A stretch of 64,000 bases of DNA from Deltaproteobacteria bacterium (GTDB taxonomy: Bacteria > Desulfobacterota > Syntrophobacteria > BM002). Numbering within the stretch: position 1 is the stretch's first letter; each line of letters begins with the position of its first letter. Position numbers and translations under genes: made by a program. Shown here piece by piece: positions 6,113-52,540 of this stretch. The stretch spans positions 686,682 through 750,681 of the forward strand of contig CP070689.1 in assembly GCA_020353155.1 (NCBI GenBank), in the 5' to 3' direction. The notes beneath the pieces are model-generated. The model made no database searches. It was given only the letters and a program-made list of their open reading frames with translations, and was not told the origin of the DNA.

Positions 6113-6200
6113 TGGTGCCGGAGGGGAGAGTCGAACTCCCACGGGCGCAAGGCCCACTGGATTTTGAGTCCAGCGCGTCTACCAGTTTCACCACTCCGGC
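6113..6200 (-). tRNA. tRNA-Leu, anticodon CAA (class II, long variable arm, encoded CCA).
   Basis: The reverse complement reads GCCGGAG...CTCCGGCACCA, a 7-bp acceptor stem. The anticodon loop is CUCAAAA, giving CAA. A long variable arm precedes the T-arm GGTTCGACTCC-like motif (GAGTTCGACTCTC). Confidence 0.85.
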
Positions 6201-22433: not shown

Positions 22434-22835
22434 TTAGGGTATGGTCTTACCTCCCTTACGTTTCTTCTGGGCAATGACATTCCCTATGAACTGAACGTCT
22501 GCTTCCGATATGTATTCAAACTCTGCACCTATTATGAAAAGACTGGAATCTTCTTGAGGGACCCGTTCCATCGCCCATATTGATTTTACTGATACCAGTA
22601 TGGGTTGATGGCTGGGAGGTTGGATTTCCAGCCGAAATTCTTGCCCTATGGGGGGCAACTCACGACAGTAAAAAGATGCTCCAACCTGACTGAGGCTCTT
22701 GGGTTCTCCCGTAAACTGTCCGTCGGAGGTGATGACAGTTGTGGGCCATTTGACCTCTATTCGCTCAAATCTGCGTCTATCTCTCTCGAAAACCATGATG
22801 CGCACCCTATTGCTAAAGCATTTGTAGACCGTCAA
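22434..22835 (-). CDS. PilZ domain protein, a putative c-di-GMP receptor.
   Basis: 133 aa. RRFERIEV (RxxxR) and a DGQFTGEPKSLSQVG (DxSxxG-like) motif. Confidence 0.65.
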   Translation of the reverse strand: MTVYKCFSNRVRIMVFERDRRRFERIEVKWPTTVITSDGQFTGEPKSLSQVGASFYCRELPPIGQEFRLEIQPPSHQPILVSVKSIWAMERVPQEDSSLFIIGAEFEYISEADVQFIGNVIAQKKRKGGKTIP

Positions 22836-23326: not shown

Positions 23327-23770
23327 TCAGGACTGACTAATCTCCTGGTACAGGGGGAGCACTGTCGTGTCTTTTGATTTGGACTTTGTAAGTTTGCCTG
23401 CCAACTTCCCCCCTGATTCTATGGAAAGTCTTCCGTAAGCTATCTCTCCAATTACTGTCCCTGTGCTTAATATGTTTAACCTGCCATTGCAGATCATCTC
23501 ACCTTGGAATTTTCCTGCCACACTTATGTTCTCTGCCTCCACATTCGCATCTACATCGCCTTCTTGTAGAATTTCAAGAGAGCCGCACTTTATCGTTCCT
23601 GTCACTGAACCATGCACAATGAGAGTGCCCTCTGTCTCTATGTTACCCTTAAAATTACTACTGTCAGAAATGATAGTAGTCTCTACAGTTTTGAATGGAC
23701 TTCTGAAAATCTTGCCTTTGGAAGGGCTATCATTTTGTTCCGGCGGTTTTTCCTTTGTTCTCTGCCACAT
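23327..23770 (-). CDS. Bactofilin (DUF583/CcmA-like polymer-forming cytoskeletal protein).
   Basis: 147 aa. Repetitive beta-helix pattern: FKGNIETEGTLIVHGSVTGTIKCGSLEILQEGDVDANVEAENISVAGKFQGEMICNGRLNILSTGTVIGEIAYGRLSIESGGKLAG. Confidence 0.75.
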   Translation of the reverse strand: MWQRTKEKPPEQNDSPSKGKIFRSPFKTVETTIISDSSNFKGNIETEGTLIVHGSVTGTIKCGSLEILQEGDVDANVEAENISVAGKFQGEMICNGRLNILSTGTVIGEIAYGRLSIESGGKLAGKLTKSKSKDTTVLPLYQEISQS

Positions 23771-41631: not shown

Positions 41632-43080
41632 CTAGCCCTTATTCTCCAGGGCCCTGATCCTACTCAGGCAAGTGTCGATGAGTACGGCCGGAGAAAAGCC
41701 TCCGGCAAATCTCTCGTCTAGCGACTCCGGCATTTTTTTCAGGAGCCGCACCACATTTGCATATTCGAGTCTTGCCTCATCAAATTGCCCCACCTGGCTG
41801 TAGAGGTCGCCCAAATTGAATCGGGCCAGGGCATGCTCCGGCTGCAGATACAATACCTTTTTGAATTCTTCCATGGCTCTGGCGTCATCTTCCCATGTTA
41901 GATAAATGACCCCCAGCAGGTAGTGGCCGGCAACAGATAGAGGCTCCCTCTCAACGATCCTCTCACAGAGCTGTACCGCTTTCTCCAGCTCGCCCTGGTT
42001 GAGGGCAATTTCTGCCTGAAGCAGGAGTATACTTTCTGGCGCGCTTGACTCCCTCAGATATGGGCTCAAGATTTCACCGGCCTCTTGGGGTTTCCCCCTC
42101 TCTAGAAGTTCCTTTGCCCTGGCGCAGATTTGCGCAATCTCATCCGACTTTGTCCCAGCAACAGCCTTCGGTCCCTGCTTCCTGGACCTGCGGGTAGTAG
42201 TTCTCCGCCGACCCCTGATTTTTCTGTCTTTTTTTCTGACCTCTTTTTTCGGCACTCCTTTTCGATAAAAAAACGCCCCTTCTTGCTGAAGGGTGTCAAA
42301 TTCATCGGAGATATAGCGTAAGCTCTCTGAGTAACCGGCAAAAAGGTAGCCACCCTCACGCAAACTTCGGTAAAAATTGTGTATTACTTTCCTAGTGGCC
42401 TCTGCTTGGAAATAAATAGTCACATTGCGGCAAAAAATTATGTCCCAGCCAGACATCTCTATCAGTGGATAGGGCTCGGTTACCAGATTGAAGTAACGAA
42501 ATTCCACCATCTGCTTAATCGACTCGTCAAGCAAGTAGTGATTCCCTTTTCTAATAAAAAAACGGTTTAGATAGTCCTGCGGCACGTCGCGGACGGAACG
42601 GGCCGTATAGATTCCCTCACGAGCCGCCTTCAGCGCATCTTGACTTACATCGGTGGCTAGAATCTGGATTGGCCTATCCACTGTTCCTGCCGCCAAAATC
42701 ATGGCAATGGTGTAAGGCTCCTCTCCGGTAGAACAGCCCGCGCTCCATATTCGCAGTGATGCTCCCGGATAAGATTTCTTTTTAACTATCTCTGGAATCA
42801 CAAAACGTTCGAGGGCCCTGAACTGTGCTCGATCTCGGAAGAAATGAGTTTCTGGGATTGTTATCAAGTTGAGCAAATGGTCGAATTCTTTGGTACAAGC
42901 CGGAGACAAAAGGAGATTGAAATATTCGGCAAAATTACTGAGACCGCAATCTGCCATTCTTTGCAGAAGATTATCCTTGAGCAATTCTTGTTTCTCGGGC
43001 TCGAAATAAATTCCGGACCTCTCTGCAATCAGATCCCGAAAACTGCGGAAATCATTCTCACTGAGTGATAATTCGTTCAT
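41632..43080 (-). CDS. cheR: Chemotaxis protein methyltransferase CheR with C-terminal TPR repeats (FrzF-like).
   Basis: Start MNELSLSENDFRSFRDLIAERSGIYF (ATG at 43080). The CheR SAM-MTase has RIWSAGCSTGEEPYTIAMIL. The C-terminal ~150 aa are TPR (AGHYLLGVIYLTWEDDARAMEEFKKVLYLQPEHALARFNLGDLYSQVGQFDEA). Confidence 0.85.
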   Translation of the reverse strand: MNELSLSENDFRSFRDLIAERSGIYFEPEKQELLKDNLLQRMADCGLSNFAEYFNLLLSPACTKEFDHLLNLITIPETHFFRDRAQFRALERFVIPEIVKKKSYPGASLRIWSAGCSTGEEPYTIAMILAAGTVDRPIQILATDVSQDALKAAREGIYTARSVRDVPQDYLNRFFIRKGNHYLLDESIKQMVEFRYFNLVTEPYPLIEMSGWDIIFCRNVTIYFQAEATRKVIHNFYRSLREGGYLFAGYSESLRYISDEFDTLQQEGAFFYRKGVPKKEVRKKDRKIRGRRRTTTRRSRKQGPKAVAGTKSDEIAQICARAKELLERGKPQEAGEILSPYLRESSAPESILLLQAEIALNQGELEKAVQLCERIVEREPLSVAGHYLLGVIYLTWEDDARAMEEFKKVLYLQPEHALARFNLGDLYSQVGQFDEARLEYANVVRLLKKMPESLDERFAGGFSPAVLIDTCLSRIRALENKG

Positions 43081-43260
43081 TTGATTTGATCTTCTGGTCC
43101 GACCCACCAATTGGACAGCCAAAATGCAAACCCCGGTGAAACTAGCCCTTCCTGTGGAATTTAGCTCTAGGCGAGTCCGCAAGGCTGCATTCCACAAGGC
43201 GAGAATTACACCGGGTATATCTCGTCAATTTTGCCGCCGACCTTCAGGAAGCGGTATAGT

Positions 43261-44370
43261 TTATTTTTCTGTATCTTCCTGTTCAGAAATCCATTCCATT
43301 ATCTGAGGTCCAATCTCATCCAGCGGCAGCACTATTTCGGCTGCATCGAGTTCAATTGCGGCCTTCGGCATCCCAAAGATTATGCTGGTCTGTTCATCTT
43401 GAGCTATGGTGTGCCCACCACAAAGTCGAAGACTTTTCAGCCCCTCCGCCCCGTCGGATCCCATGCCGGTGAGGATGACACCAATCCCTCGCTTCCCATA
43501 ATTGTTGGCCACTGAATCAAAAAGCAACTCAGCCGACGGTCGGTGGCCATTGATTGGCAGGGATCTGTTGAGACGCACACTGTCCAGCTCGGTGACCATC
43601 ATATGGTGATCCCCAGGAGCAACCAGAACTACTCCAGCCTCGAGCAAATCTCCTTCCTGCGCCTTCCTCACCTCAAGCTCCACTTCGTTATCTAGCCAGC
43701 GGACCAAACCTTCCAGAAATCCCGTACTCATATGCTGAACAACAAGGAAGGCGGCGCTTACCTGAGGTGAAATTCCCCTTAAAACCCTTACAAGTGCGGT
43801 CGGCCCTCCGGTGGAAGCCGCGATTGCTACCACCAGAGGGGACTCTGCTAGTCTTGGCTGAGGGCGGCGGAAAGTAAAGAGCGGTTCAGGCTCAGCAGGG
43901 ACGTATTCCACCACCCGCTTCACCTTGGTAGAGGCCAGAGTGCGCAATCTGCGCAAAAAGCTGTTTCTGATCTCCGGCCGAGTGCGCCATAGGTAGAGCT
44001 CCTGCTTGTCAAGAACGTCCAGAGCGCCGGCCGTTATGGCGCGAAAGAGCTTTTCCTCCTGTTTACTCATAGAAGCGGTGATCATTACAATGGGAACTGG
44101 GAATACAGCCAGAATACGCTCCACCGCCTGAAAACCGTCAATCCCGGGAAGTCGTATGTCCATAGTAACCAGATCGGGCCTCATTTTTAAAGCGGAGGCC
44201 ACAGCCTCCAATCCATCCCCCACCGCTCCCACCACTTGAAATCGTGGGTCGGTGGTCAGGATTTCTTCAAGCAAGTCCCGGGCGCTTTTTACATCATCTA
44301 CGATCAGTACCCGGATGGGCTCGCTGCCCTCGGTATCCCTCATATTTTGCTTTTCCCGTTCAGCTGTCAT
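43261..44370 (-). CDS. cheB: Protein-glutamate methylesterase/response regulator CheB.
   Basis: 369 aa. N-terminal REC (VLIVDD...MDIRLPGIDG) and a C-terminal CheB methylesterase (GASTGGPTAL, catalytic S/H/D). Confidence 0.9.
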   Translation of the reverse strand: MTAEREKQNMRDTEGSEPIRVLIVDDVKSARDLLEEILTTDPRFQVVGAVGDGLEAVASALKMRPDLVTMDIRLPGIDGFQAVERILAVFPVPIVMITASMSKQEEKLFRAITAGALDVLDKQELYLWRTRPEIRNSFLRRLRTLASTKVKRVVEYVPAEPEPLFTFRRPQPRLAESPLVVAIAASTGGPTALVRVLRGISPQVSAAFLVVQHMSTGFLEGLVRWLDNEVELEVRKAQEGDLLEAGVVLVAPGDHHMMVTELDSVRLNRSLPINGHRPSAELLFDSVANNYGKRGIGVILTGMGSDGAEGLKSLRLCGGHTIAQDEQTSIIFGMPKAAIELDAAEIVLPLDEIGPQIMEWISEQEDTEK

Positions 44371-44415: not shown

Positions 44416-47004
44416 TTATTGCTTACTGCCTTCCCCGAGCAAGGTCTCTATGGTTTCAATCAAGTTTTTTTGATCAAAGCTGCTTTTGACTAAATAGGCG
44501 TTGGCGCCTGCCTCCAGTCCCCGTCGCTTGTCCTCCTCACTCTCCATAGAGGTTACAACCACCACTGGCAAATCTTTGGTTCTCTCATTGGACCTGATTT
44601 TTCTGGTGAGGGTGAAACCGTCCATCTTCGGCATTAGTACATCTGTAAGCACCAAGTCAAAATCCTGTTGTCCCAATCTGTTCAGAGCATCCATTCCGTT
44701 CTCCGCAGTAACTACTTGATAGCCGGCCGCTTCCAAGATGCTCTTTTCCATCTGCCGGGTCACCACCTGATCTTCCACCACTAAGATCAACTGACCGTGT
44801 GTCGAGATGACCTTTTCTTCTGGTGCCCTCTCCTTCTTTCTTACCTCAGGATGCCCGCGCCATAATAGCTGGGGTACATCTAGAATGATAGCCACCTCGC
44901 CTGAACCTAGAATGGTGGCGCCGGCCACGTAGTCTACTTTCTTGAGATGGGTCCCCAAGTCTTTGCTGACAATCTCGAGCTCTCCCAATATATCCTCCAC
45001 CAGGAAGCCTACCTTGCGCTCCCCAGCTTGAAGGATCACAACCAGAACCTTGCCCTCCTTCGGTGGGCTGCCATTCCTCTCTTTCCAGCCCAAAGTGGCC
45101 GCAAGGCTTCGCACCGGCAGAATCTCTTCCTGATGCACCACTGCCTGCCGTCCCTGAATTGATTTGATCTCCTGCAGAGGGACTTGAAAGGTCTTGGCCA
45201 CAGAGAAAGCGGGAACGGCCAGGACTTCGCCAGCGCACCGGACCATGAGTGCATGGACTGTTGCCAGGGTGAGGGGCAGAGATATGGTAAAAGTAGTTCC
45301 TTTGCCCAGTTCCGAAGCGATCTCCACCTGACCTTTAAGCCGATCCACATTGGCTCGCACTACATCCATGCCCACTCCACGACCTGAGACATCAGTGACC
45401 AGGCCACTCGTGCTCAAACCCGGGAGAAAGATGAGCTCTAGAAGTTGAGCTTCGCTCCAACCCGCAATCTCCCTTTCATCCACTAGCCCTTTGTCTAAGG
45501 CCGCTTTTTTAAGGAGTTGGGAGTCAATACCCTGACCATCGTCTTCCAGGATGATAAGTACTTTGGCTCCCTCTTGCTTTGCCTCGAGTCTGATTGTTCC
45601 GAGCTCTGGCTTCCCAGCGCTTCGTCTGACATCGGGTGCCTCCAGACCGTGGTCCAGAGCGTTGCGCAGCAAATGAATCAGAGGATCGCCTATCTGCTCG
45701 AGGATGCGCTTGTCGATAGTTGTCTCTTCTCCCTTTACTGTAAAAGCAACCTTCTTGCCGAATTGCCGGCTGAGATCACGCACGGCCCTGGGTAAAGTGT
45801 TCAAGACCAGGGCCAGAGGCAGCATACGAATCTCCATACTGCGATGCTGCAAGTTCTCAATGTGACGACCGGCATTTTCTGCGGCATCTTGCAAACGACG
45901 GCCCATATCCTCTAGGGAGTCTCCAAACTCAAAGAGTTTGCTTACCAAGCCCGTCTCTCTCGCTGGCTCAGCTGAATGGACAGCATCGTAGTCATGAATA
46001 CGCAGATGCCGCCACTTGTCTCTGATTTGCATGAGCCCATCAATTTCGCTTGCAAGATGTTGTTGAGCCACAGCCGCCTCGGCTGCCAGGTTGACAAGTT
46101 CATCCAGTTTGGTTGTGGTCACCCGAACAGTATCCATGGTCGAAACGCTGGTCTCACTGACCGGAACCGATTCAGTGACTGGTCTAACCGGCTCTGTCAC
46201 TATGGCGCCTACTGCGGGCTGAAGCTCAGGCAGTAAATTGGCTAGCCGCGCCATGGTGCTTTCCGCGTCGACTCTAATCCTTTTGCTGGCCGCAAGGGTA
46301 TCCAGCATTACCGTAAGAGCATCATTGGTCTCGTACAGGGCGTCGCACGCTTCCGTCGTTACCGGGAGTTGGCTCTTTTGCAGGGCCCGAAGGACGTCCT
46401 CCATGTGGTGAGCCAGCTTTCCCATCCGCTCAAATCCCATGGTCATGGCCGAACCTTTGAGACTATGGGCGTTTCTATAGACTTCCTGTAAAATCTCATT
46501 GTTTGCTGGTTCTTTCTCCAGAACTGCCAGGCCACGGTTGATTGCCTCCACATTGTCACGAGCAGCGGCAATAAAATCTGGTAGGAGAGCCTCCATATCC
46601 TCGGGGGCTCTTTCCTCTTCTATTTCTATGGCAGTGAAGAGGAGAGGCTCCAATTCCTCAACCAGATCGGCTACCCTGCTGGAGTCCACTTCTCTGGTTC
46701 GCAGGTATTGAACAAAGAGATCTATTCCATCGAAGAAAAGGTTGGCGAGATATTCATCGAAAGGTAAGCGGCCCGCATCTACTGCCACCAGGACGTCTTC
46801 AAATATATGGGCCAACTGGCCAAGAGTCGGTGCCCTCAGCCGATTGGCAAATCCTTTTATGTTGTGCAGCTGCCGGCTTGCCCTTTCAAGCGAATCATGA
46901 GCTTTAGGATCGGTTTCAAGCCTCAGCAAAGCATCATTGAACTGCTCGAGAGCTTCCCGATAATCATCTTTCAAGGTCAAAAACAGGTCGGTATCTTCGC
47001 TCAT
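44416..47004 (-). CDS. cheA: Chemotaxis histidine kinase CheA with two Hpt domains and a C-terminal CheY-like receiver (FrzE-like hybrid).
   Basis: 862 aa. Hpt1 H in QLHNIKGFANRL and Hpt2 H in NAHSLKGSAMTMG. P3 dimerisation, HATPase N-box LLRNALDHGLE, G1 DDGQGID and G2 GRGVGMD. A CheW-like P5 domain follows. The REC domain has VVEDQ...LTDVLMPKMDG...VKS. Confidence 0.9.
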   Translation of the reverse strand: MSEDTDLFLTLKDDYREALEQFNDALLRLETDPKAHDSLERASRQLHNIKGFANRLRAPTLGQLAHIFEDVLVAVDAGRLPFDEYLANLFFDGIDLFVQYLRTREVDSSRVADLVEELEPLLFTAIEIEEERAPEDMEALLPDFIAAARDNVEAINRGLAVLEKEPANNEILQEVYRNAHSLKGSAMTMGFERMGKLAHHMEDVLRALQKSQLPVTTEACDALYETNDALTVMLDTLAASKRIRVDAESTMARLANLLPELQPAVGAIVTEPVRPVTESVPVSETSVSTMDTVRVTTTKLDELVNLAAEAAVAQQHLASEIDGLMQIRDKWRHLRIHDYDAVHSAEPARETGLVSKLFEFGDSLEDMGRRLQDAAENAGRHIENLQHRSMEIRMLPLALVLNTLPRAVRDLSRQFGKKVAFTVKGEETTIDKRILEQIGDPLIHLLRNALDHGLEAPDVRRSAGKPELGTIRLEAKQEGAKVLIILEDDGQGIDSQLLKKAALDKGLVDEREIAGWSEAQLLELIFLPGLSTSGLVTDVSGRGVGMDVVRANVDRLKGQVEIASELGKGTTFTISLPLTLATVHALMVRCAGEVLAVPAFSVAKTFQVPLQEIKSIQGRQAVVHQEEILPVRSLAATLGWKERNGSPPKEGKVLVVILQAGERKVGFLVEDILGELEIVSKDLGTHLKKVDYVAGATILGSGEVAIILDVPQLLWRGHPEVRKKERAPEEKVISTHGQLILVVEDQVVTRQMEKSILEAAGYQVVTAENGMDALNRLGQQDFDLVLTDVLMPKMDGFTLTRKIRSNERTKDLPVVVVTSMESEEDKRRGLEAGANAYLVKSSFDQKNLIETIETLLGEGSKQ

Positions 47005-47137: not shown

Positions 47138-49303
47138 TTACTCTATCTTAAACTCACTAACCCTTGATCTGAGCTCCTCCGAGAGTCGGTTGAGATCGCT
47201 TGCTGAGGAGATGGTGTTCTTAGAAGCAGCCGCAGTTTGCTGTGCCACTTTAGAGATTTCTCTCATGGTGTTGACCACCTGTTCGCTTGCCTCTTTCTGT
47301 TGGTTTGTGGCCACAGAAATCTGCCTCGCCGATTCCGCAGTTTGCTCAGCCATGGCAATAATGTTTTCCAAGGCGTCCCGCACCTTGTTCAGGCGTACTT
47401 CCCCTTCCTCAACTCCCTTGACATTCTCCTCAGCTGCAAGAACCGAAGCATTTGCGGCCGACTGAATCTCCAAGAGCACATCCCGGATGGTACCCGTGGA
47501 TTTCACTACATCTTCGGCAAGGCGGCGAATCTCTCCGGCCACCACGGAGAAACCTTTACCTGCCTCCCCTGCTTTTGCCGCTTCAATGGCCGCGTTGAGG
47601 GAAAGCATTTTGGTTTCTATGGCTATTTCATTGATTATATCAATAATTTCACCTATTTGCTGGCTTTTTTGCCCCAGCCTGAGAATCTTCTCAGCGCTTT
47701 CTTCGGTTTTGCTTCGAATCAGGACCATGCTCTTGGTACTCTCTTCCATGAAATCCTGTCCTTCTTCGGCGCTCTTCAAGGTCTCTTCGGCCACAGCGGT
47801 TACGGCGTTACTGTTTTCGGCGATCTGCCGGGCAGTTGTGCTGAGCTCCTCCATAGTTGCGGTAGTCTCACTTACCGAAGCCGCTTGCTGTGCCGCGCCA
47901 CTCGCCTGCTGCTGAGCTGCCGACACGATCTCGCTGGAGGAGTTGCCTATGCGAGACGCTGCCTCCTGACTCTGGCCGGTCATCTCCCTAAGATTGTTCA
48001 CCATAGCGTTGATTGCCTTGCCGAAAGGGCCTGGGAAAATCACCCGCTGGCTGAAGTCTCCACCGGCAATTTTCTGTGCCTGTCCGGCAAGCAAAGTAAA
48101 GTTCTGGTGCATGGAGTCAAAGGCCTCAGCTAGCATTCCCACTTCATCGCCCGATGCGAGGGCGACCTTCTCGGAGATCTCTCCCTCAGAAATCTTTCTG
48201 GCATATCGCCCCAGTTTGCTCAGGGGCTTGGTAAAATTACCGGCAAGAATATAGGCAAGGTAAAATCCGATAAGTAGGATTAGCAAGCAGGCAAGGCTAG
48301 TCATCCAGAAAACATTTCTCAGGGGTGAAAAGAATCCGCTGCTGTCTGCTTCACTGACCAAAAATCCGTTCAAGTCTTCTATCTTATGGAAGGCGTAGAT
48401 CTTGCCCTGAAGTTTGTCCACATAGGTGCCGAAAGGTGTCCGAGCCAACTCGCTCATCAGCCCCTCCGGTAGCACAGGACTCGATCCTTGCGGGTGGCTA
48501 GCAATCAAGGATCCAGTGGAGGCAAGCAAATAGGTCGAAGTGGAACCACCAACTCTTAACTTTCCCAGCACCTCCTCTAGCCTCTCTATTTTCTTGTGCT
48601 CGGCTAAATTTCTCCAGTTTTGGGTGCTGGAAACCAGGTCAAGCTTGATACGCTGAGCTTCTATTGCCTGACTTTCTAAAGCTTTCTTACTTTCCACATA
48701 GCTGATGGAACTCACAAAAAGAACGGCAATGAGAACCAGCGAACCACAAGTGACCCACAGCTTTTGAGAAAGACTCATGCCCTTTAGGGACACCCGTTCC
48801 GGCAAGCTGCTCATAAACTCTGCCATCGCCGGAAGAGTGATAGCCTCCATAGTAAAAAGGCTAAAAATAGAGTAGAGCAAACAAATAACAAGTCCTGCCA
48901 GAAGGCTCTGGAGAGTCTGAGCTAGGCTGAAATGAGCCATCAACCTCATCGCCAGAGTTCCCAGTAAAAAGATTCCATATCCGGCCGCAAAGAGGCCTAG
49001 GGCCAGACGTCCTGGCAATTTAGCACCCAATTGCAGAGTAGCGGCCGCTTCCTGGAAATCCAACTCGCCATCAGTAGAAATGGCTCTCTCGAGTGAAAGG
49101 AGTTGTCGACCGTACTGCATGGGCAAAAGCATAAAGAGGCCAAGCAGTAAAACCGCTTCAACAAAGTAAATAGCCAGAAAAGACCGGACCTGACCACCAG
49201 CCAAGTCAACGCTGAGCCAGAGGTAGGGCAGCCCAAGGATTAGAACTACATAGACAAACAACATAGCCTGGTTCCAAACGATCTTTTTCTTGAGTCCACT
49301 CAT
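47138..49303 (-). CDS. Methyl-accepting chemotaxis protein with a multi-TM N-terminal sensor module.
   Basis: 721 aa. About 5 N-terminal TM helices, a ~150 aa extracytoplasmic region, a sixth TM, then HAMP. The MCP signalling domain follows, including the highly conserved hairpin region ETKMLSLNAAIEAAKAGEAGKGFSVVAGEIRRLAE. Confidence 0.9.
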   Translation of the reverse strand: MSGLKKKIVWNQAMLFVYVVLILGLPYLWLSVDLAGGQVRSFLAIYFVEAVLLLGLFMLLPMQYGRQLLSLERAISTDGELDFQEAAATLQLGAKLPGRLALGLFAAGYGIFLLGTLAMRLMAHFSLAQTLQSLLAGLVICLLYSIFSLFTMEAITLPAMAEFMSSLPERVSLKGMSLSQKLWVTCGSLVLIAVLFVSSISYVESKKALESQAIEAQRIKLDLVSSTQNWRNLAEHKKIERLEEVLGKLRVGGSTSTYLLASTGSLIASHPQGSSPVLPEGLMSELARTPFGTYVDKLQGKIYAFHKIEDLNGFLVSEADSSGFFSPLRNVFWMTSLACLLILLIGFYLAYILAGNFTKPLSKLGRYARKISEGEISEKVALASGDEVGMLAEAFDSMHQNFTLLAGQAQKIAGGDFSQRVIFPGPFGKAINAMVNNLREMTGQSQEAASRIGNSSSEIVSAAQQQASGAAQQAASVSETTATMEELSTTARQIAENSNAVTAVAEETLKSAEEGQDFMEESTKSMVLIRSKTEESAEKILRLGQKSQQIGEIIDIINEIAIETKMLSLNAAIEAAKAGEAGKGFSVVAGEIRRLAEDVVKSTGTIRDVLLEIQSAANASVLAAEENVKGVEEGEVRLNKVRDALENIIAMAEQTAESARQISVATNQQKEASEQVVNTMREISKVAQQTAAASKNTISSASDLNRLSEELRSRVSEFKIE

Positions 49304-49330: not shown

Positions 49331-49747
49331 TTAGCCCTCATATTGAAGATCTACTAGCAGGACCAACTCATCATTCCATTGGCAGACACCCCACAGTTGC
49401 TTCCATTGCTTCTGAACATCGAGCAAAGGTGGTAGCTTCCATACCTGTCTGGTCATGTCGACTGATATGAGATCGCCTACCTTGTCGACTTTATAACCCA
49501 TCTTTTCCTCACCCCGATCTATGATTAGGATTTGCCGGTGATTTTCACTTGGCGCTGGGGGCAGACCGCACGCCGTCCTCAAGTCCAGTATGGGTAAATG
49601 ATCAGCTGATCCAATGTCTGGAGTAGGTGACATCTGCCGGGATGGAGGGGGCAGTCTGAGTACCTGATGGGCCTCTACACCTAAGAGGAATGGACCAACC
49701 CAAAAGGTGAGAATCGCCAGGGTAGCAGCCTCGTCGGTACCTACCAT
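49331..49747 (-). CDS. cheW: CheW-like coupling protein (divergent, FrzB-like position).
   Basis: 138 aa. The CheW fold pattern (ILTFWVG...LPILDLR...ILIIDRGEEKMGYKVDKVGDLISV) is recognisable but diverged. Confidence 0.7.
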   Translation of the reverse strand: MVGTDEAATLAILTFWVGPFLLGVEAHQVLRLPPPSRQMSPTPDIGSADHLPILDLRTACGLPPAPSENHRQILIIDRGEEKMGYKVDKVGDLISVDMTRQVWKLPPLLDVQKQWKQLWGVCQWNDELVLLVDLQYEG

Positions 49748-49750
49748 GAT

Positions 49751-50287
49751 TTATCCTCGCTCTGAATACATATCTTTTGACCCAAAGATCCCTTCAAGTT
49801 TGATGATACTCAAAAGGATATCACCCCAGTGTGTCGCCCCCTCAAAAAATACACGTTGCAACTCACCCGCGGTAATTGCCTCCTCACTCAAATCATCCGG
49901 GGCCAGTTCTATTAGGTCACCGATCTCGTCTACCAATAAACCCGTCTGCATCTCACCCTGTTCCACCACAACGATGGCCTGGTCAGCCGTTGATTCGCTC
50001 TGAGCCAACCCGAATAATTTCTTTAAATCAACGGCCGATAGCACTTCCCCTCTGAAATTCATGACCCCGAGGATGTGATCGGGGACACTGGGTACCCGGG
50101 TAATCTTGGGTATCGGCAGTACCTCCACCAGTTGGTAGACGCTCAAACCGTACCATTCAGCGTTGAGACGGAAAGTGAGATATTGTTGTTGGGGGGTATC
50201 TAAGGTATCTTGGGCAAGATGATTTTGCTGAGCCCGGCGGACCTGCTCAATAACATTTTTCCCTGGTCCGGTTGGGGAATCTGGCAT
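49751..50287 (-). CDS. cheW: CheW coupling protein (FrzA-like position).
   Basis: 178 aa. YLTFRLNAEWYGLSVYQLVEVLPIPKITRVPSVPDHILGVMNFRGEVLSAVDL is a canonical CheW. Confidence 0.8.
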   Translation of the reverse strand: MPDSPTGPGKNVIEQVRRAQQNHLAQDTLDTPQQQYLTFRLNAEWYGLSVYQLVEVLPIPKITRVPSVPDHILGVMNFRGEVLSAVDLKKLFGLAQSESTADQAIVVVEQGEMQTGLLVDEIGDLIELAPDDLSEEAITAGELQRVFFEGATHWGDILLSIIKLEGIFGSKDMYSERG

Positions 50288-50374: not shown

Positions 50375-52540
50375 CTACTGTTCCCGGCCGTAAATGGATA
50401 GCACCCGGTTGATTCTGGCTAGCAGCAGGTTGGCAACAATTGGTTTGGGAATATAATCATCGGCGCCAGCCTCCAGACCCTCCACCTCATTTTCTACCTC
50501 GTCCATAGAAGTGAGAAGAATCACCGGTATTATACTGGTCTGCAAATGACCTTTGAGCTTTTTAACCAGGGAAAGACCATCGAGTTTGGGCATAACCACA
50601 TCGGAGATAATCAGATCGGGCCTCTCCCTATAGACCTTCTCCAAGGCTTCCTCCCCATCGGTGGCTAGCACCACATCGTATTGGGCTTCAGTCAATACCT
50701 TTTCCAGCATCTTGCGGATGAAGGGATCGTCGTCCACTGCCAAAATCCGCAGCTGATCCCTAGATGGCTCAGGAACTTTATCTTCCGCCAACCCTACAAC
50801 TGCCTCCTCCACTGGGGCCACAATGCCTTTTACCTCCGGCGGTGGCGCCACCCTCATCAACTCTTCAACCGAGGTTACTCCCTTAAGAAGCTTGTCTCGA
50901 CAGTCACCAAACATGTCGTCGATTCCTCGCTCTCTGGCATTTTCTGCAATCTCGGTATCCGAAGCTCCTTTGACAATAAGTTTCCTCAATTCATCATCGA
51001 CCCTGAGTACCTCGTAGATCCCGATTCGCCCCATGTAGCCTGTAAACTGACAGGCTTCACAACCCTGACCTTTCTTGATTTTATTTTCAAAGTTTTTCGT
51101 ATCGGAGAAGCCAAATCGGGTGAGTAGCTTTTTGTCCACCTTGTCAGACATCAGGCAATGGGGGCAGTTTTTCCTAACCAGCCGCTGTGCCAGAACGCAA
51201 AGGAGCGATGAGGCGATAACATAAGGGTCGACGCCCAAGTCCACCAGTCTAGTCACTGCCGAGGAGGCATCGTTGGTGTGCAAGGTTGTCAAGACCAGGT
51301 GGCCTGTGTTTGCTGCCTGGAAAGCTATTTTTGCTGTCTCCGCATCTCGGATCTCCCCCACCATGACCACGTTGGGATCCTGTCGCAGGATGGAGCGCAG
51401 TCCGGAGGCAAATGTTATTCCTGCTTTCTCGTTTACCTGGACCTGACTGATACCTGGCAGCTGATACTCCACGGGGTCTTCTACAGTTACGATGTTTATC
51501 ACCTCTGATCTCAAACGGTTGAGAGATCCATAAAGAGTTGTACTCTTGCCGCTACCAGTGGGTCCTGTGACCAGAACTATACCTTGCGGCCTGGTGAGCA
51601 TGGAGGTGTAGACTGACAGGTCGTCAGATTTGAAACCAAGTTCTTCGAGATCAATGAATGCCTTGGACTGGTCTAATATGCGGATTACCACCTTTTCGCC
51701 AAAGATAGTGGGCAGGGTGGATATACGCATATCAAATTGATTCTTGCCGACCTTGAGTTTGGTGCGGCCGTCCTGTGGGCGCCGCTTAACCGAAATGTCC
51801 ATATCGCCGATGATTTTGATTCTGGAGACCAGTGGGGCCAAAGCTGGTAGGCCAACTTTGAAGATGTTTTTCATCATCCCATCGATACGGTAACGCACGG
51901 ACACCTCTTTTTCATGGGGCTCGATGTGGATGTCGCTAGCGCTTAGTTTAATGGCGTCGGCAAGAATTGCATTGGTCAACCTGACAATGGGAGCTATCTC
52001 AGATTGACGGATGAGCTCGTCTACGTCGTATTCGTTGTCTTCCCTTTCCTCGGCGAGAACTTCCACCTCCTCCGTGGGAACCATGGTGGCGAACATATCG
52101 AAGTCAAAATCATCCCCGTATTTCTCGTCTATGGCCTCACGGATATCTTCTTCGGCAGCAACCGCTACTGACACATCAAGTCCCGTCTTGAATTTGACCT
52201 CGTTAATAGTGCCATAATCCAGCGGATTGGCCATGGCAAGACGGAGACGTCTTCCTGTCTTTTCATAAGGAAGGATGAGCCTTCTGTTCGCCTGCTTTCT
52301 AGAGATGGTTTCGAGGACCTCCTCCGGGATTTCCAGATTTTTAAGTTTGACGTGAGGGATATTTAGCTGTTTGGACAGGGCCTGGCAAATATCCTCATCC
52401 TTGGCCCACTGCTTCTCAACGATGATTTTACCGAGATGTTTCTTTGTTCCCTTTTTCTGTTCTTCCAGTGCTGTAACCAGTTGATCCTCGCTGATCAATC
52501 CAGCTTCCACTAGAATCTGACCAAGTTTTTTCCGTCGCAT
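50375..52540 (-). CDS. MshEN (c-di-GMP-binding N-domain) plus GspE/PilB/MshE-type secretion/pilus ATPase plus a C-terminal CheY-like receiver. A three-module fusion.
   Basis: 721 aa.
- Residues ~5-50 carry two tandem MshEN 24-mers: KLGQILVEAGLISEDQLVTALEEQ and HLGKIIVEKQWAKDEDICQALSKQ.
- T2SSE N1 region (RLILPYEKTGRRLRLAMANPLD).
- ATPase core with Walker A LVTGPTGSGKSTT, Asp box/Walker B VMVGEIRD, His box TGHLVLTTLHTND, and the tetracysteine CPHC...CEAC.
- The C-terminal REC has LAVDDD, ISDVVMP (the phospho-Asp), LLTS and IPKP. Confidence 0.85.
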   Translation of the reverse strand: MRRKKLGQILVEAGLISEDQLVTALEEQKKGTKKHLGKIIVEKQWAKDEDICQALSKQLNIPHVKLKNLEIPEEVLETISRKQANRRLILPYEKTGRRLRLAMANPLDYGTINEVKFKTGLDVSVAVAAEEDIREAIDEKYGDDFDFDMFATMVPTEEVEVLAEEREDNEYDVDELIRQSEIAPIVRLTNAILADAIKLSASDIHIEPHEKEVSVRYRIDGMMKNIFKVGLPALAPLVSRIKIIGDMDISVKRRPQDGRTKLKVGKNQFDMRISTLPTIFGEKVVIRILDQSKAFIDLEELGFKSDDLSVYTSMLTRPQGIVLVTGPTGSGKSTTLYGSLNRLRSEVINIVTVEDPVEYQLPGISQVQVNEKAGITFASGLRSILRQDPNVVMVGEIRDAETAKIAFQAANTGHLVLTTLHTNDASSAVTRLVDLGVDPYVIASSLLCVLAQRLVRKNCPHCLMSDKVDKKLLTRFGFSDTKNFENKIKKGQGCEACQFTGYMGRIGIYEVLRVDDELRKLIVKGASDTEIAENARERGIDDMFGDCRDKLLKGVTSVEELMRVAPPPEVKGIVAPVEEAVVGLAEDKVPEPSRDQLRILAVDDDPFIRKMLEKVLTEAQYDVVLATDGEEALEKVYRERPDLIISDVVMPKLDGLSLVKKLKGHLQTSIIPVILLTSMDEVENEVEGLEAGADDYIPKPIVANLLLARINRVLSIYGREQ

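Follow-up and report, generated by a model that had tools for sequence, protein, structure and literature searches.

A PilB-type ATPase fused to a C-terminal receiver domain at the head of a chemosensory gene cluster in an uncultured deltaproteobacterium

A PilB-type ATPase fused to a receiver domain

A stretch of 64,000 nucleotides from the genome of Deltaproteobacteria bacterium (GTDB lineage Bacteria; Desulfobacterota; Syntrophobacteria; BM002; assembly GCA_020353155.1, contig CP070689.1, positions 686,682 to 750,681), here called the window, carries on its minus strand, at 50375..52540, a gene whose product joins a PilB-type ATPase to a receiver (REC) domain. A previous examination of the letters of this DNA, here called the sequence-only reading, had drawn attention to the combination of an MshEN-type N-terminus, a PilB/GspE-type ATPase and a receiver in one polypeptide. 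Profile searches bear this out, recovering three Pfam domains in a single uninterrupted open reading frame (ORF) that begins with ATG and encodes 721 amino acids (aa). The most informative feature of the gene was absent from that reading: it heads a run of chemosensory (che) genes, from which the signal received by the receiver might come.

The protein starts with a helix bundle of the MshEN_N type that comprises two 24-residue repeats, the first of which (aa 5-28, 52457..52528, KLGQILVEAGLISEDQLVTALEEQ) fits the relaxed pattern of Wang et al. 2016, while the second (aa 35-58, 52367..52438, HLGKIIVEKQWAKDEDICQALSKQ) is degenerate and follows after a 6-residue spacer. These repeats, like all the domains that follow, lie on the minus strand with the gene. 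Next come the N1 domain (MshEN_C / T2SSE_N1; aa 59-143, 52112..52366; PF05157, E 1.2e-18) and the PilB/GspE-type ATPase core, made up of the N2 and C-terminal domains (aa 180-563, 50852..52003). The core is recovered by the Pfam T2SSE profile PF00437 with an E-value of 4.8e-136 and 453.7 bits against a cutoff of 24.9, positions 3-370 of the 370 in the profile being covered. A Pro/Glu-rich flexible linker of about 35 residues (aa 564-598, 50747..50851) then leads into the receiver (aa 599-710, 50411..50746). The assignment of this C-terminal segment to Response_reg (PF00072), which had been proposed from its motifs, is unambiguous in the profile search (E 5.7e-29; 101 bits where 30.2 would suffice; positions 1-110 of the 111-position profile covered).

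An AlphaFold2 (AF2) model of the full protein, built from a 64-sequence family alignment, has a mean pLDDT of 80.7 and shows every domain with confidence. The N-terminus forms a four-helix bundle (helices 6-12, 18-29, 36-42 and 48-59; pLDDT ~70-85), N1 a beta-alpha fold (pLDDT 82-90) and the receiver a (beta-alpha)5 fold of five strand-helix units (pLDDT ~90). The linker is predicted to be disordered, with a pLDDT of ~31-35 both in this model and in that of a truncated construct consisting of the C-terminal half of the ATPase and the receiver. It is also the least conserved segment of the protein (0.47-0.59), its length varying from 32 to 56 residues across the family.

The low-complexity linker is the sole reason to consider that an assembly error or a frameshift might have brought together two separate genes, a pilB and a cheY, and we found nothing in favour of such a join. 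PF00437 and PF00072 are found together in a continuous ORF in 117 of the 120 best clusters at 90% identity, whose identities to the protein range from 94% down to 44% and whose sequences are drawn from four independent data sources, namely NCBI, JGI, ENA and Logan assemblies. The source names of these clusters include Syntrophobacteria, Syntrophobacterales, Thermodesulfobacteriota and Desulfobacterales. The fusion also occurs on contigs that are complete or large (4.7 Mb and 8.2 Mb), and the G+C content of the gene (~0.50) is the same as in the remaining window and unremarkable along its length. With more than 100 independent clusters showing the fusion, a join created by a frameshift or by misassembly is ruled out, its probability being practically nil, and the sequence-only reading was right to treat the fusion as genuine.

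The ATPase core retains the motifs required for activity, as had been anticipated: a Walker A motif GPTGSGKS at 326 (with K332), CPHC at 459 and CEAC at 494, the last two supplying the zinc-binding tetracysteine (C459/C462/C494/C497). In the family alignment K332, E396, R398, D399, H414 and H421, which belong to the Walker A motif, the GEIRD Asp box and the His box, are invariant, and across 108 full-length relatives the zinc-binding cysteines are conserved along with an invariant Walker A lysine. Along aa 1-565 the protein is collinear with the whole of Geobacter PilB (491 bits) and, at a lower score, with PilB of Myxococcus xanthus (465 bits); Thermus PilF is also collinear, and GspE scores lower (~398 bits). 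In these alignments the canonical PilB stops exactly where the linker of the fusion protein starts. A Foldseek comparison of the modelled core with the Geobacter PilB structures 5tsh/5tsg gave a target-normalised TM-score of 0.94 and a root-mean-square deviation of 1.9 Å at 48% identity.

The receiver is complete, again as had been noted earlier, with the acidic pair D603/D604, the phospho-acceptor D647 (in ISDVVMP), T677 (in LLTS) and K699 (in IPKP). All 108 relatives have the quintet in the form D/E, D, D, T/S, K, with D604, D647 and K699 being invariant. The receiver is among the best-conserved segments of the protein (0.82-0.89), and the highest value is reached in its alpha4-beta5 region (0.89). 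This high conservation suggests that alpha4-beta5 forms a functional surface, which might serve in the pairing of receivers around the hexamer or in docking to the ATPase.

The chemosensory gene cluster downstream of the fusion gene

The gene next to the fusion gene on the same strand, 87 nucleotides (nt) past its end, is cheW (49751..50287; Pfam CheW, E 5.8e-33). The intervening gap contains no terminator-like site, and a GGAG lies upstream of cheW. There follow, all on the minus strand, a second, degenerate cheW-like gene (cheW'; 49331..49747; partial Pfam CheW match, E 1.9e-10), a gene for a membrane chemoreceptor (MCP; 47138..49303; Pfam MCPsignal and HAMP) whose translation shows hydrophobic segments, and a gene for a CheA hybrid kinase (44416..47004) in which Pfam recognises two Hpt domains, the dimerisation, HATPase and CheW-like domains and a C-terminal REC. 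The Hpt domains carry HxxKG motifs that read LHNIKG and AHSLKG. The cluster is completed by cheB, coding for a REC-methylesterase (43261..44370; Pfam CheB_methylest and Response_reg), and by a cheR-TPR methyltransferase gene (41632..43197; Pfam CheR, CheR_N and TPR repeats). Thus a core of MCP, CheW and CheA, along with the CheB and CheR adaptation pair, is encoded between 41632 and 50287. The ORF after cheR codes for a VTT/DedA membrane protein, and on the other side tilS, ftsH and folP lie upstream of the fusion gene in divergent orientation. CheR-TPR genes mark clusters with non-flagellar, alternative functions (PMC3447774); a survey of CheR-TPR genes makes no mention of a cluster of the present type.

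Neither the ORF list nor Pfam reveals a single-domain CheY or any CheY-sized REC ORF in the che cluster. Besides those of CheA and CheB, the sole REC encoded here is the one fused to the ATPase, and it is probably the dedicated response-regulator output of the cluster. Since the fusion gene heads a che-like operon devoid of CheY, a likely phosphodonor is thereby identified and the ATPase itself becomes the probable direct target of phosphorylation.

Conservation of the neighborhood among relatives

To judge whether this arrangement is more than an accident of one genome we can draw on the loci of close relatives. Eight loci of the close clade (71-96% identity) can be read downstream of the fusion gene, and in every one of them che genes follow it. 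The first cheW is syntenic in each of these eight and the degenerate cheW' in seven; MCP and cheA-REC are likewise syntenic in related loci. In one relative that is 78% identical (CP070692.1; locus L001, 12201-18410), the second cheW and cheB have been lost and cheR has been reduced to a remnant of 151 aa with TPRs, and the genes for PilB-REC, cheW, the MCP and cheA-REC have been retained. Because this locus keeps only these four intact, they are apparently the conserved unit. The same order is found on an independent contig from Mariprofundaceae, where the fusion gene is followed after a gap of 3 nt by cheW, MCP and cheA-REC, with the fusion protein being 42% and CheA 30% identical to the versions studied here.

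Other branches of the family are linked to other potential phosphodonors. In a Desulfobacterales-type clade a standalone Hpt gene lies immediately upstream of the fusion gene (loci L003/L004, L005 and L021), and further relatives are accompanied by genes for hybrid kinases whose last domain is Hpt, and by REC-HD-GYP, REC-GGDEF, GGDEF and PilZ genes in the vicinity. Like the CheA with its two Hpt domains, these neighbors lend genomic support to phosphorylation of the receiver by a cognate His/Hpt donor.

Some of these loci have further features of their own. On the flanks of the Hpt and PilB-REC genes of two distant-clade genomes lie genes for giant multidomain signalling proteins of 2036-2303 aa (L003/L004, 2723-9634; L021, 12253-18363), whose domains include Ser/Thr-kinase, AAA_16, GAF and PAS. 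At two distant-clade loci an ORF of 191 aa lacking a Pfam match directly follows the fusion gene (L002, 12688-13263; L017, 10237-10812), and in L017 the ORF after it has a weak FIMAH match.

From receptor to motor: a proposed pathway and its alternatives

The domain composition of the protein, its intact catalytic residues, the conserved fusion and its conserved linkage to phosphodonor genes are all directly observed. Based on these, we place the probability at roughly one half (about 0.5) that the fusion protein is a hexameric ATPase of the PilB family, of the class assembling type IVa pili (T4aP), with a linker-tethered receiver through which it serves as the output regulator of the downstream che pathway. 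In this uncultured Syntrophobacterales-type deltaproteobacterium the membrane receptor would set the autophosphorylation of CheA, and the phosphoryl group would then move from an Hpt histidine of CheA to D647 on the motor's own receiver. The phosphorylated receiver would in turn alter the output of the motor, by way of its ATPase activity or hexamer conformation, or else its engagement or location at the pilus platform. Both the transfer from CheA to the receiver and the effect of phosphorylation on the motor are steps that we infer. More tentatively, the chemosensory array may phosphorylate the pilus extension motor itself, in which case pilB-REC, cheW, MCP and cheA-REC would make up a self-contained sensory-motor unit. 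If so, the state of the receptor would be passed directly to filament extension, with no diffusible CheY-like intermediate and no polarity adaptor. The four-gene module is shared by Syntrophobacterales-type deltaproteobacteria and Mariprofundaceae.

Several observations weigh against this proposal. First, CheA and CheB each have a receiver of their own, so the flow of phosphate is not uniquely fixed. Second, many of the relatives with a C-terminal REC are orphans lacking recognisable signalling neighbors. Third, the AF2 monomer models show no confident REC-ATPase interface (pTM 0.51 for the full-length and 0.61 for the truncated model). Fourth, the match to the NCBIfam PilB equivalog model TIGR02538 reaches 625.7 bits, under the cutoff of 675.65, with model positions 1-561 of 564 aligned. 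Finally, genes for a pilus, a secretin, the platform protein PilC or a pilin are absent from the window and from the surroundings of the relatives examined.

The third of these points bears on the possibility that the receiver acts without any allosteric effect on the ATPase, either draining phosphate from CheA in the manner of PixH or a second CheY, or holding the motor at the array or the pole. A long disordered tether with no predicted docking surface would suit such a role, and phosphate-sink regulators, namely PixH and the REC of PixL, are documented in che systems controlling type IV pili (T4P) (PMC11181946). Yet the che cluster encodes no other candidate output regulator, and a sink has no need to be fused to a motor of 560 residues, whereas this fusion is conserved across phyla. 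The strong conservation of alpha4-beta5 and the fact that REC proteins do act on PilB in trans likewise speak for a receiver that influences the motor, and we consider a mere sink or anchor decidedly improbable.

The fourth and fifth points concern the nature of the ATPase. The GspE equivalog model TIGR02533 also scores below its cutoff (583.5 bits against 630.25), and as neither equivalog model reaches its threshold, the protein belongs to a divergent paralog class and is not a certified PilB. It could hence be an accessory, sensor-fused PilB/GspE paralog other than the main T4P extension motor, powering another filament or secretion system or having a regulatory function next to that of a canonical PilB. 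Consistent with this, the fusion gene never adjoins pil or gsp genes at the loci examined, the window having no pilC, pilT, pilMNOPQ, pilin or gsp genes and consisting otherwise of housekeeping genes. Further sensor-fused paralogs stand beside some relatives, the sequence representatives discussed below include many alternative fusions (N-terminal REC, tandem ATPase, zinc ribbon-REC and REC-GAF), and up to 22 MshEN genes have been counted in one genome (Wang et al. 2016). Against it stand the full-length collinearity with T4aP PilB, the preference for PilB over GspE both by sequence and in the NCBIfam models, and the superposition of the modelled core on PilB. Furthermore, the identity of the core to PilB-like proteins that lack a REC, ~55%, equals its identity to distant members with the fusion. 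T4aP genes are dispersed in the genomes of Syntrophobacterales and Desulfobacterales (PMC6060248), so missing pil neighbors are to be expected in this lineage and constitute weak evidence only. On balance an accessory role appears unlikely, and the machine powered by the fusion protein may well be a type IV pilus.

The sensor-fused paralogs just mentioned were seen in distant-clade loci, with a GAF-MshEN-T2SSE gene near the fusion gene in L018 (15983-16435) and a TPR-MshEN-T2SSE gene in L019 (13973-16339). Their presence suggests that several PilB-type ATPases under different kinds of regulation exist side by side in these Desulfobacterota.

The N-terminal motifs and a possible cyclic di-GMP input

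The sequence-only reading had placed two motifs for the binding of cyclic di-GMP (c-di-GMP) at the N-terminus and had concluded that the protein senses this nucleotide. Both repeats are where it had put them, and the N-terminus aligns to the PilF, PilB and MshE structures; only the first repeat, however, lives up to the motif. The consensus, [R/K/L]LGxx(L/V/I)(L/V/I)xxG(L/V/I)(L/V/I)xxxxLxxxLxxQ, spans 24 residues, with a second copy expected 5 residues on, and Wang et al. 2016 supply a relaxed version of it as a search pattern. Motif 1 (K5-Q28) satisfies this relaxed pattern as well as the extended (R/K/L)LG consensus of the PilF study. Its lysine at position 1 is kept in 70 of 74 close-clade members, and published binding data show the position to be tolerant of K, L or P. 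Given that PilF GSPII-B, with K and L at position 1, binds c-di-GMP with a Kd of 6 nM, the lysine is evidently harmless. Motif 2 (H35-Q58) misses even the relaxed pattern, since position 1, which should be R/K/P/N, is H, and position 10, the helix turn, is Q44 where G/A/S is required. It further has W45/A46 at L/V/I positions, and the spacer before it is one residue longer than in the consensus.

The profile evidence for an MshEN N-terminus has to be read in the same way: PF05157 does match, over the N1 domain, and the two repeats lie outside the Pfam model. The match begins at residue 59 because the model leaves out the c-di-GMP site, an omission that Wang et al. 2016 had pointed out for the Pfam MshEN model of the time.

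The family alignment shows that the second motif has decayed throughout the close clade, where position 1 is occupied by H/Q/R/Y and the turn by E/G/Q/K, whereas the distant clade (45-50% identity) retains K/R at position 1 and the glycine of the turn. By regular-expression matching, the full pair of motifs occurs in none of 73 close-clade proteins versus 18 of 34 from the distant clade, and in distant relatives both motifs are present with the 5-residue spacer. The N-terminal bundle is in all likelihood an ancestral c-di-GMP site, which distant relatives have kept whole and which has half degenerated in the present protein. Since motif 2 is degenerate and no close-clade member keeps the full pair, the earlier claim of c-di-GMP sensing becomes doubtful; binding is possible in principle and questionable for the close clade.

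These data also bear on the idea that the protein integrates two inputs, with c-di-GMP binding at the N-terminus and phosphorylation at the C-terminus jointly setting the output of the motor. Motif 1 is fully compatible with binding, AF2 predicts the requisite four-helix bundle, and some of the distant relatives with both motifs are found among GGDEF, HD-GYP and PilZ genes. The state of motif 2 in the close clade argues in the opposite direction, as does the other che-linked lineage, represented by P0148, in which the LG signature is wholly lost. A telling parallel is PilF GSPII-A, which similarly has one good and one degenerate motif and does not bind c-di-GMP (PilF study). We therefore regard such dual control of the present protein as rather doubtful, if less so than the accessory role considered above.

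In both che-linked lineages the c-di-GMP motifs are degenerate, with one copy left or none at all. A canonical pair is retained more frequently by members whose gene is linked to those for Hpt, hybrid kinase, GGDEF or HD-GYP proteins, a tendency seen in a small sample with no correction for phylogeny. The decayed motif in the former as against the kept motif in the latter suggests that the inputs to these ATPases are interchangeable.

Distribution and diversity of the fusion

The sequence-only reading had taken the architecture to be unusual, a view that did not survive wider searches. When 1.84 billion representatives at 50% identity were searched exhaustively with HMMER, 18,945 proteins were recovered at E <= 1e-30, and among the best 150 of these ~85 have a C-terminal REC, 6 an N-terminal REC and 14-15 a tandem ATPase. 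Named members come from Omnitrophota, WOR-3, Mariprofundaceae and Thiohalorhabdus, and hence from several phyla. The PilB-REC fusion is thus common in uncultured bacteria rather than rare. In databases its members bear the generic labels 'PilB', 'GspE', 'response regulator' or 'TadA', and recognition of a large cross-phylum family would improve this annotation. The family also points to control of surface behavior or adhesion in syntrophic and iron-oxidising uncultured bacteria.

A neighbor-joining tree of the ATPase cores places the proteins with a C-terminal REC in a few large, nearly pure clades: one of 53 leaves is 94% and the 21-leaf clade of the protein studied here 86% composed of them. 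There is no clean monophyly (19 Fitch changes), although the tree is crude and some of the leaves scored as having no REC may be truncated. A scan of a genome collection with the single fusion protein returned six close relatives among metagenome-assembled genomes together with unrelated REC matches. When metagenomes were scanned with the family alignment, about 70 of 80 loci proved to be ordinary PilBs, the patterns being universal ATPase motifs, and seven new loci with a C-terminal REC were obtained, the neighbors of which were uninformative.

The best 150 representatives also contain several elaborations of the theme. P0125, P0129-P0132 and others, which are ~1000 aa long, make up the set with two tandem T2SSE domains; one representative has three C-terminal REC domains, and P0121, of 1081 aa, is listed with the tandem-ATPase and multi-REC representatives. 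Variants seen in gene-neighborhood data comprise a protein of 800 aa combining T2SSE, a double zinc ribbon and REC (L026, 7896-10298) and one of 903 aa combining T2SSE, REC and GAF (L077, 7896-10607).

Comparison with known systems

In our literature search we found no paper on a PilB or GspE with a C-terminal receiver, or on a che operon headed by one, the searchable literature being incomplete. Accordingly the fusion is uncharacterised in the literature found, and the earlier statement that this architecture is lacking among characterised proteins stands. Related domain orders have been tabulated: Wang et al. 2016 (Supplementary Table 4) list REC-MshEN-T2SSE (Gmet_3473 of Geobacter metallireducens), MshEN-REC and MshEN-T2SSE-cNMPbind, and the order MshEN-T2SSE-REC is absent from their list. 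Within the deltaproteobacteria these catalogued proteins resemble ours in combining the three kinds of domain or in carrying a sensor C-terminal to the ATPase. The receiver of Gmet_3473 is N-terminal, whereas that of the fusion protein is C-terminal behind a flexible linker. No experimental study of the catalogued REC/MshEN/T2SSE architectures was found in the searchable literature.

Among structurally characterised ATPases, PilB of G. metallireducens and G. sulfurreducens (5tsg, 5tsh, 6olj and 5zfr) and of M. xanthus (3jc8) has in common with aa 1-565 of the fusion protein the succession of MshEN_N, N1, N2 and the C-terminal ATPase domain, the Walker A motif, GEIRD and His boxes and the tetracysteine zinc site. 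Where the canonical chain is complete, at about residue 565-588, the fusion protein continues into its 35-residue linker and receiver. Vibrio cholerae MshE (5htl) and Thermus thermophilus PilF GSPII-B/C have the same four-helix bundle of two 24-residue repeats followed by N1 and, unlike the fusion protein, have no receiver. In its motif pattern, one good and one degenerate, the fusion protein is nearer to the non-binding GSPII-A than to GSPII-B/C.

How che pathways act on T4P motors is still being worked out, as in the case of Pseudomonas PilG/PilH, Myxococcus Frz and cyanobacterial PixG/PixH. In all three groups the regulator is a separate protein whose contact with PilB has been hard to pin down. 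There is a likeness to the Tax1 system of Synechocystis (PixJ, PixL, PixG and PixH), which shares with the present cluster a hybrid CheA-type kinase with a C-terminal REC (PixL) and a regulator acting on the extension motor; there only phosphorylated PixG binds the motor PilB1 (PMC11181946). The REC-REC protein DrdR of Xanthomonas stimulates ATP hydrolysis by PilB and PilT, to both of which it binds (PMC13507683). In these systems, as in Pil-Chp of Pseudomonas (ChpA, PilG and PilH) and in Frz, the regulator acts in trans, whereas here receiver and motor are covalently joined and the cluster has no free CheY-like regulator, nor any PATAN, MglA or FimX-type adaptor. Should the proposed pathway hold, the fusion would serve, like a Rosetta stone, to decipher the contacts between REC and PilB that have been inferred for the Pil-Chp, Tax1 and Xanthomonas systems, and it favors the idea that direct regulation of PilB by receivers is widespread. 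By joining phospho-switch and motor in one chain, with the likely kinase gene adjacent, nature has in effect provided a compact experimental system.

The order cheW, degenerate cheW, MCP, cheA-REC, cheB, cheR-TPR presumably mirrors that of frzA, frzB, frzCD, frzE, frzG and frzF. We nevertheless reject orthology with Frz, as only the gene order is alike. Frz has a cytoplasmic receptor, FrzCD, and works through the FrzZ/FrzX output on targets in the MglA polarity module, whereas the receptor here, with its HAMP domain and hydrophobic segments, is membrane-bound and the cluster has no FrzZ-like dual-REC gene by ORF list and Pfam.

Other features of the window

Rfam and tRNA scans yielded nothing relevant near the fusion locus; the only Rfam/ARAGORN match in the window is a tRNA-Leu(CAA) gene at 6113-6200 on the minus strand. 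A gene for the selenocysteine elongation factor, selB, lies at 803-2752, also on the minus strand. About 27 kb from the fusion gene, a stretch of low G+C content (0.44) at 22-24 kb harbors two minus-strand genes, one for a small PilZ-domain protein (22434-22835; PF07238, E 2.5e-10) and one for a bactofilin (23327-23770; PF04519, E 1.9e-23). In Myxococcus, bactofilins help to position regulators of the pilus motor.

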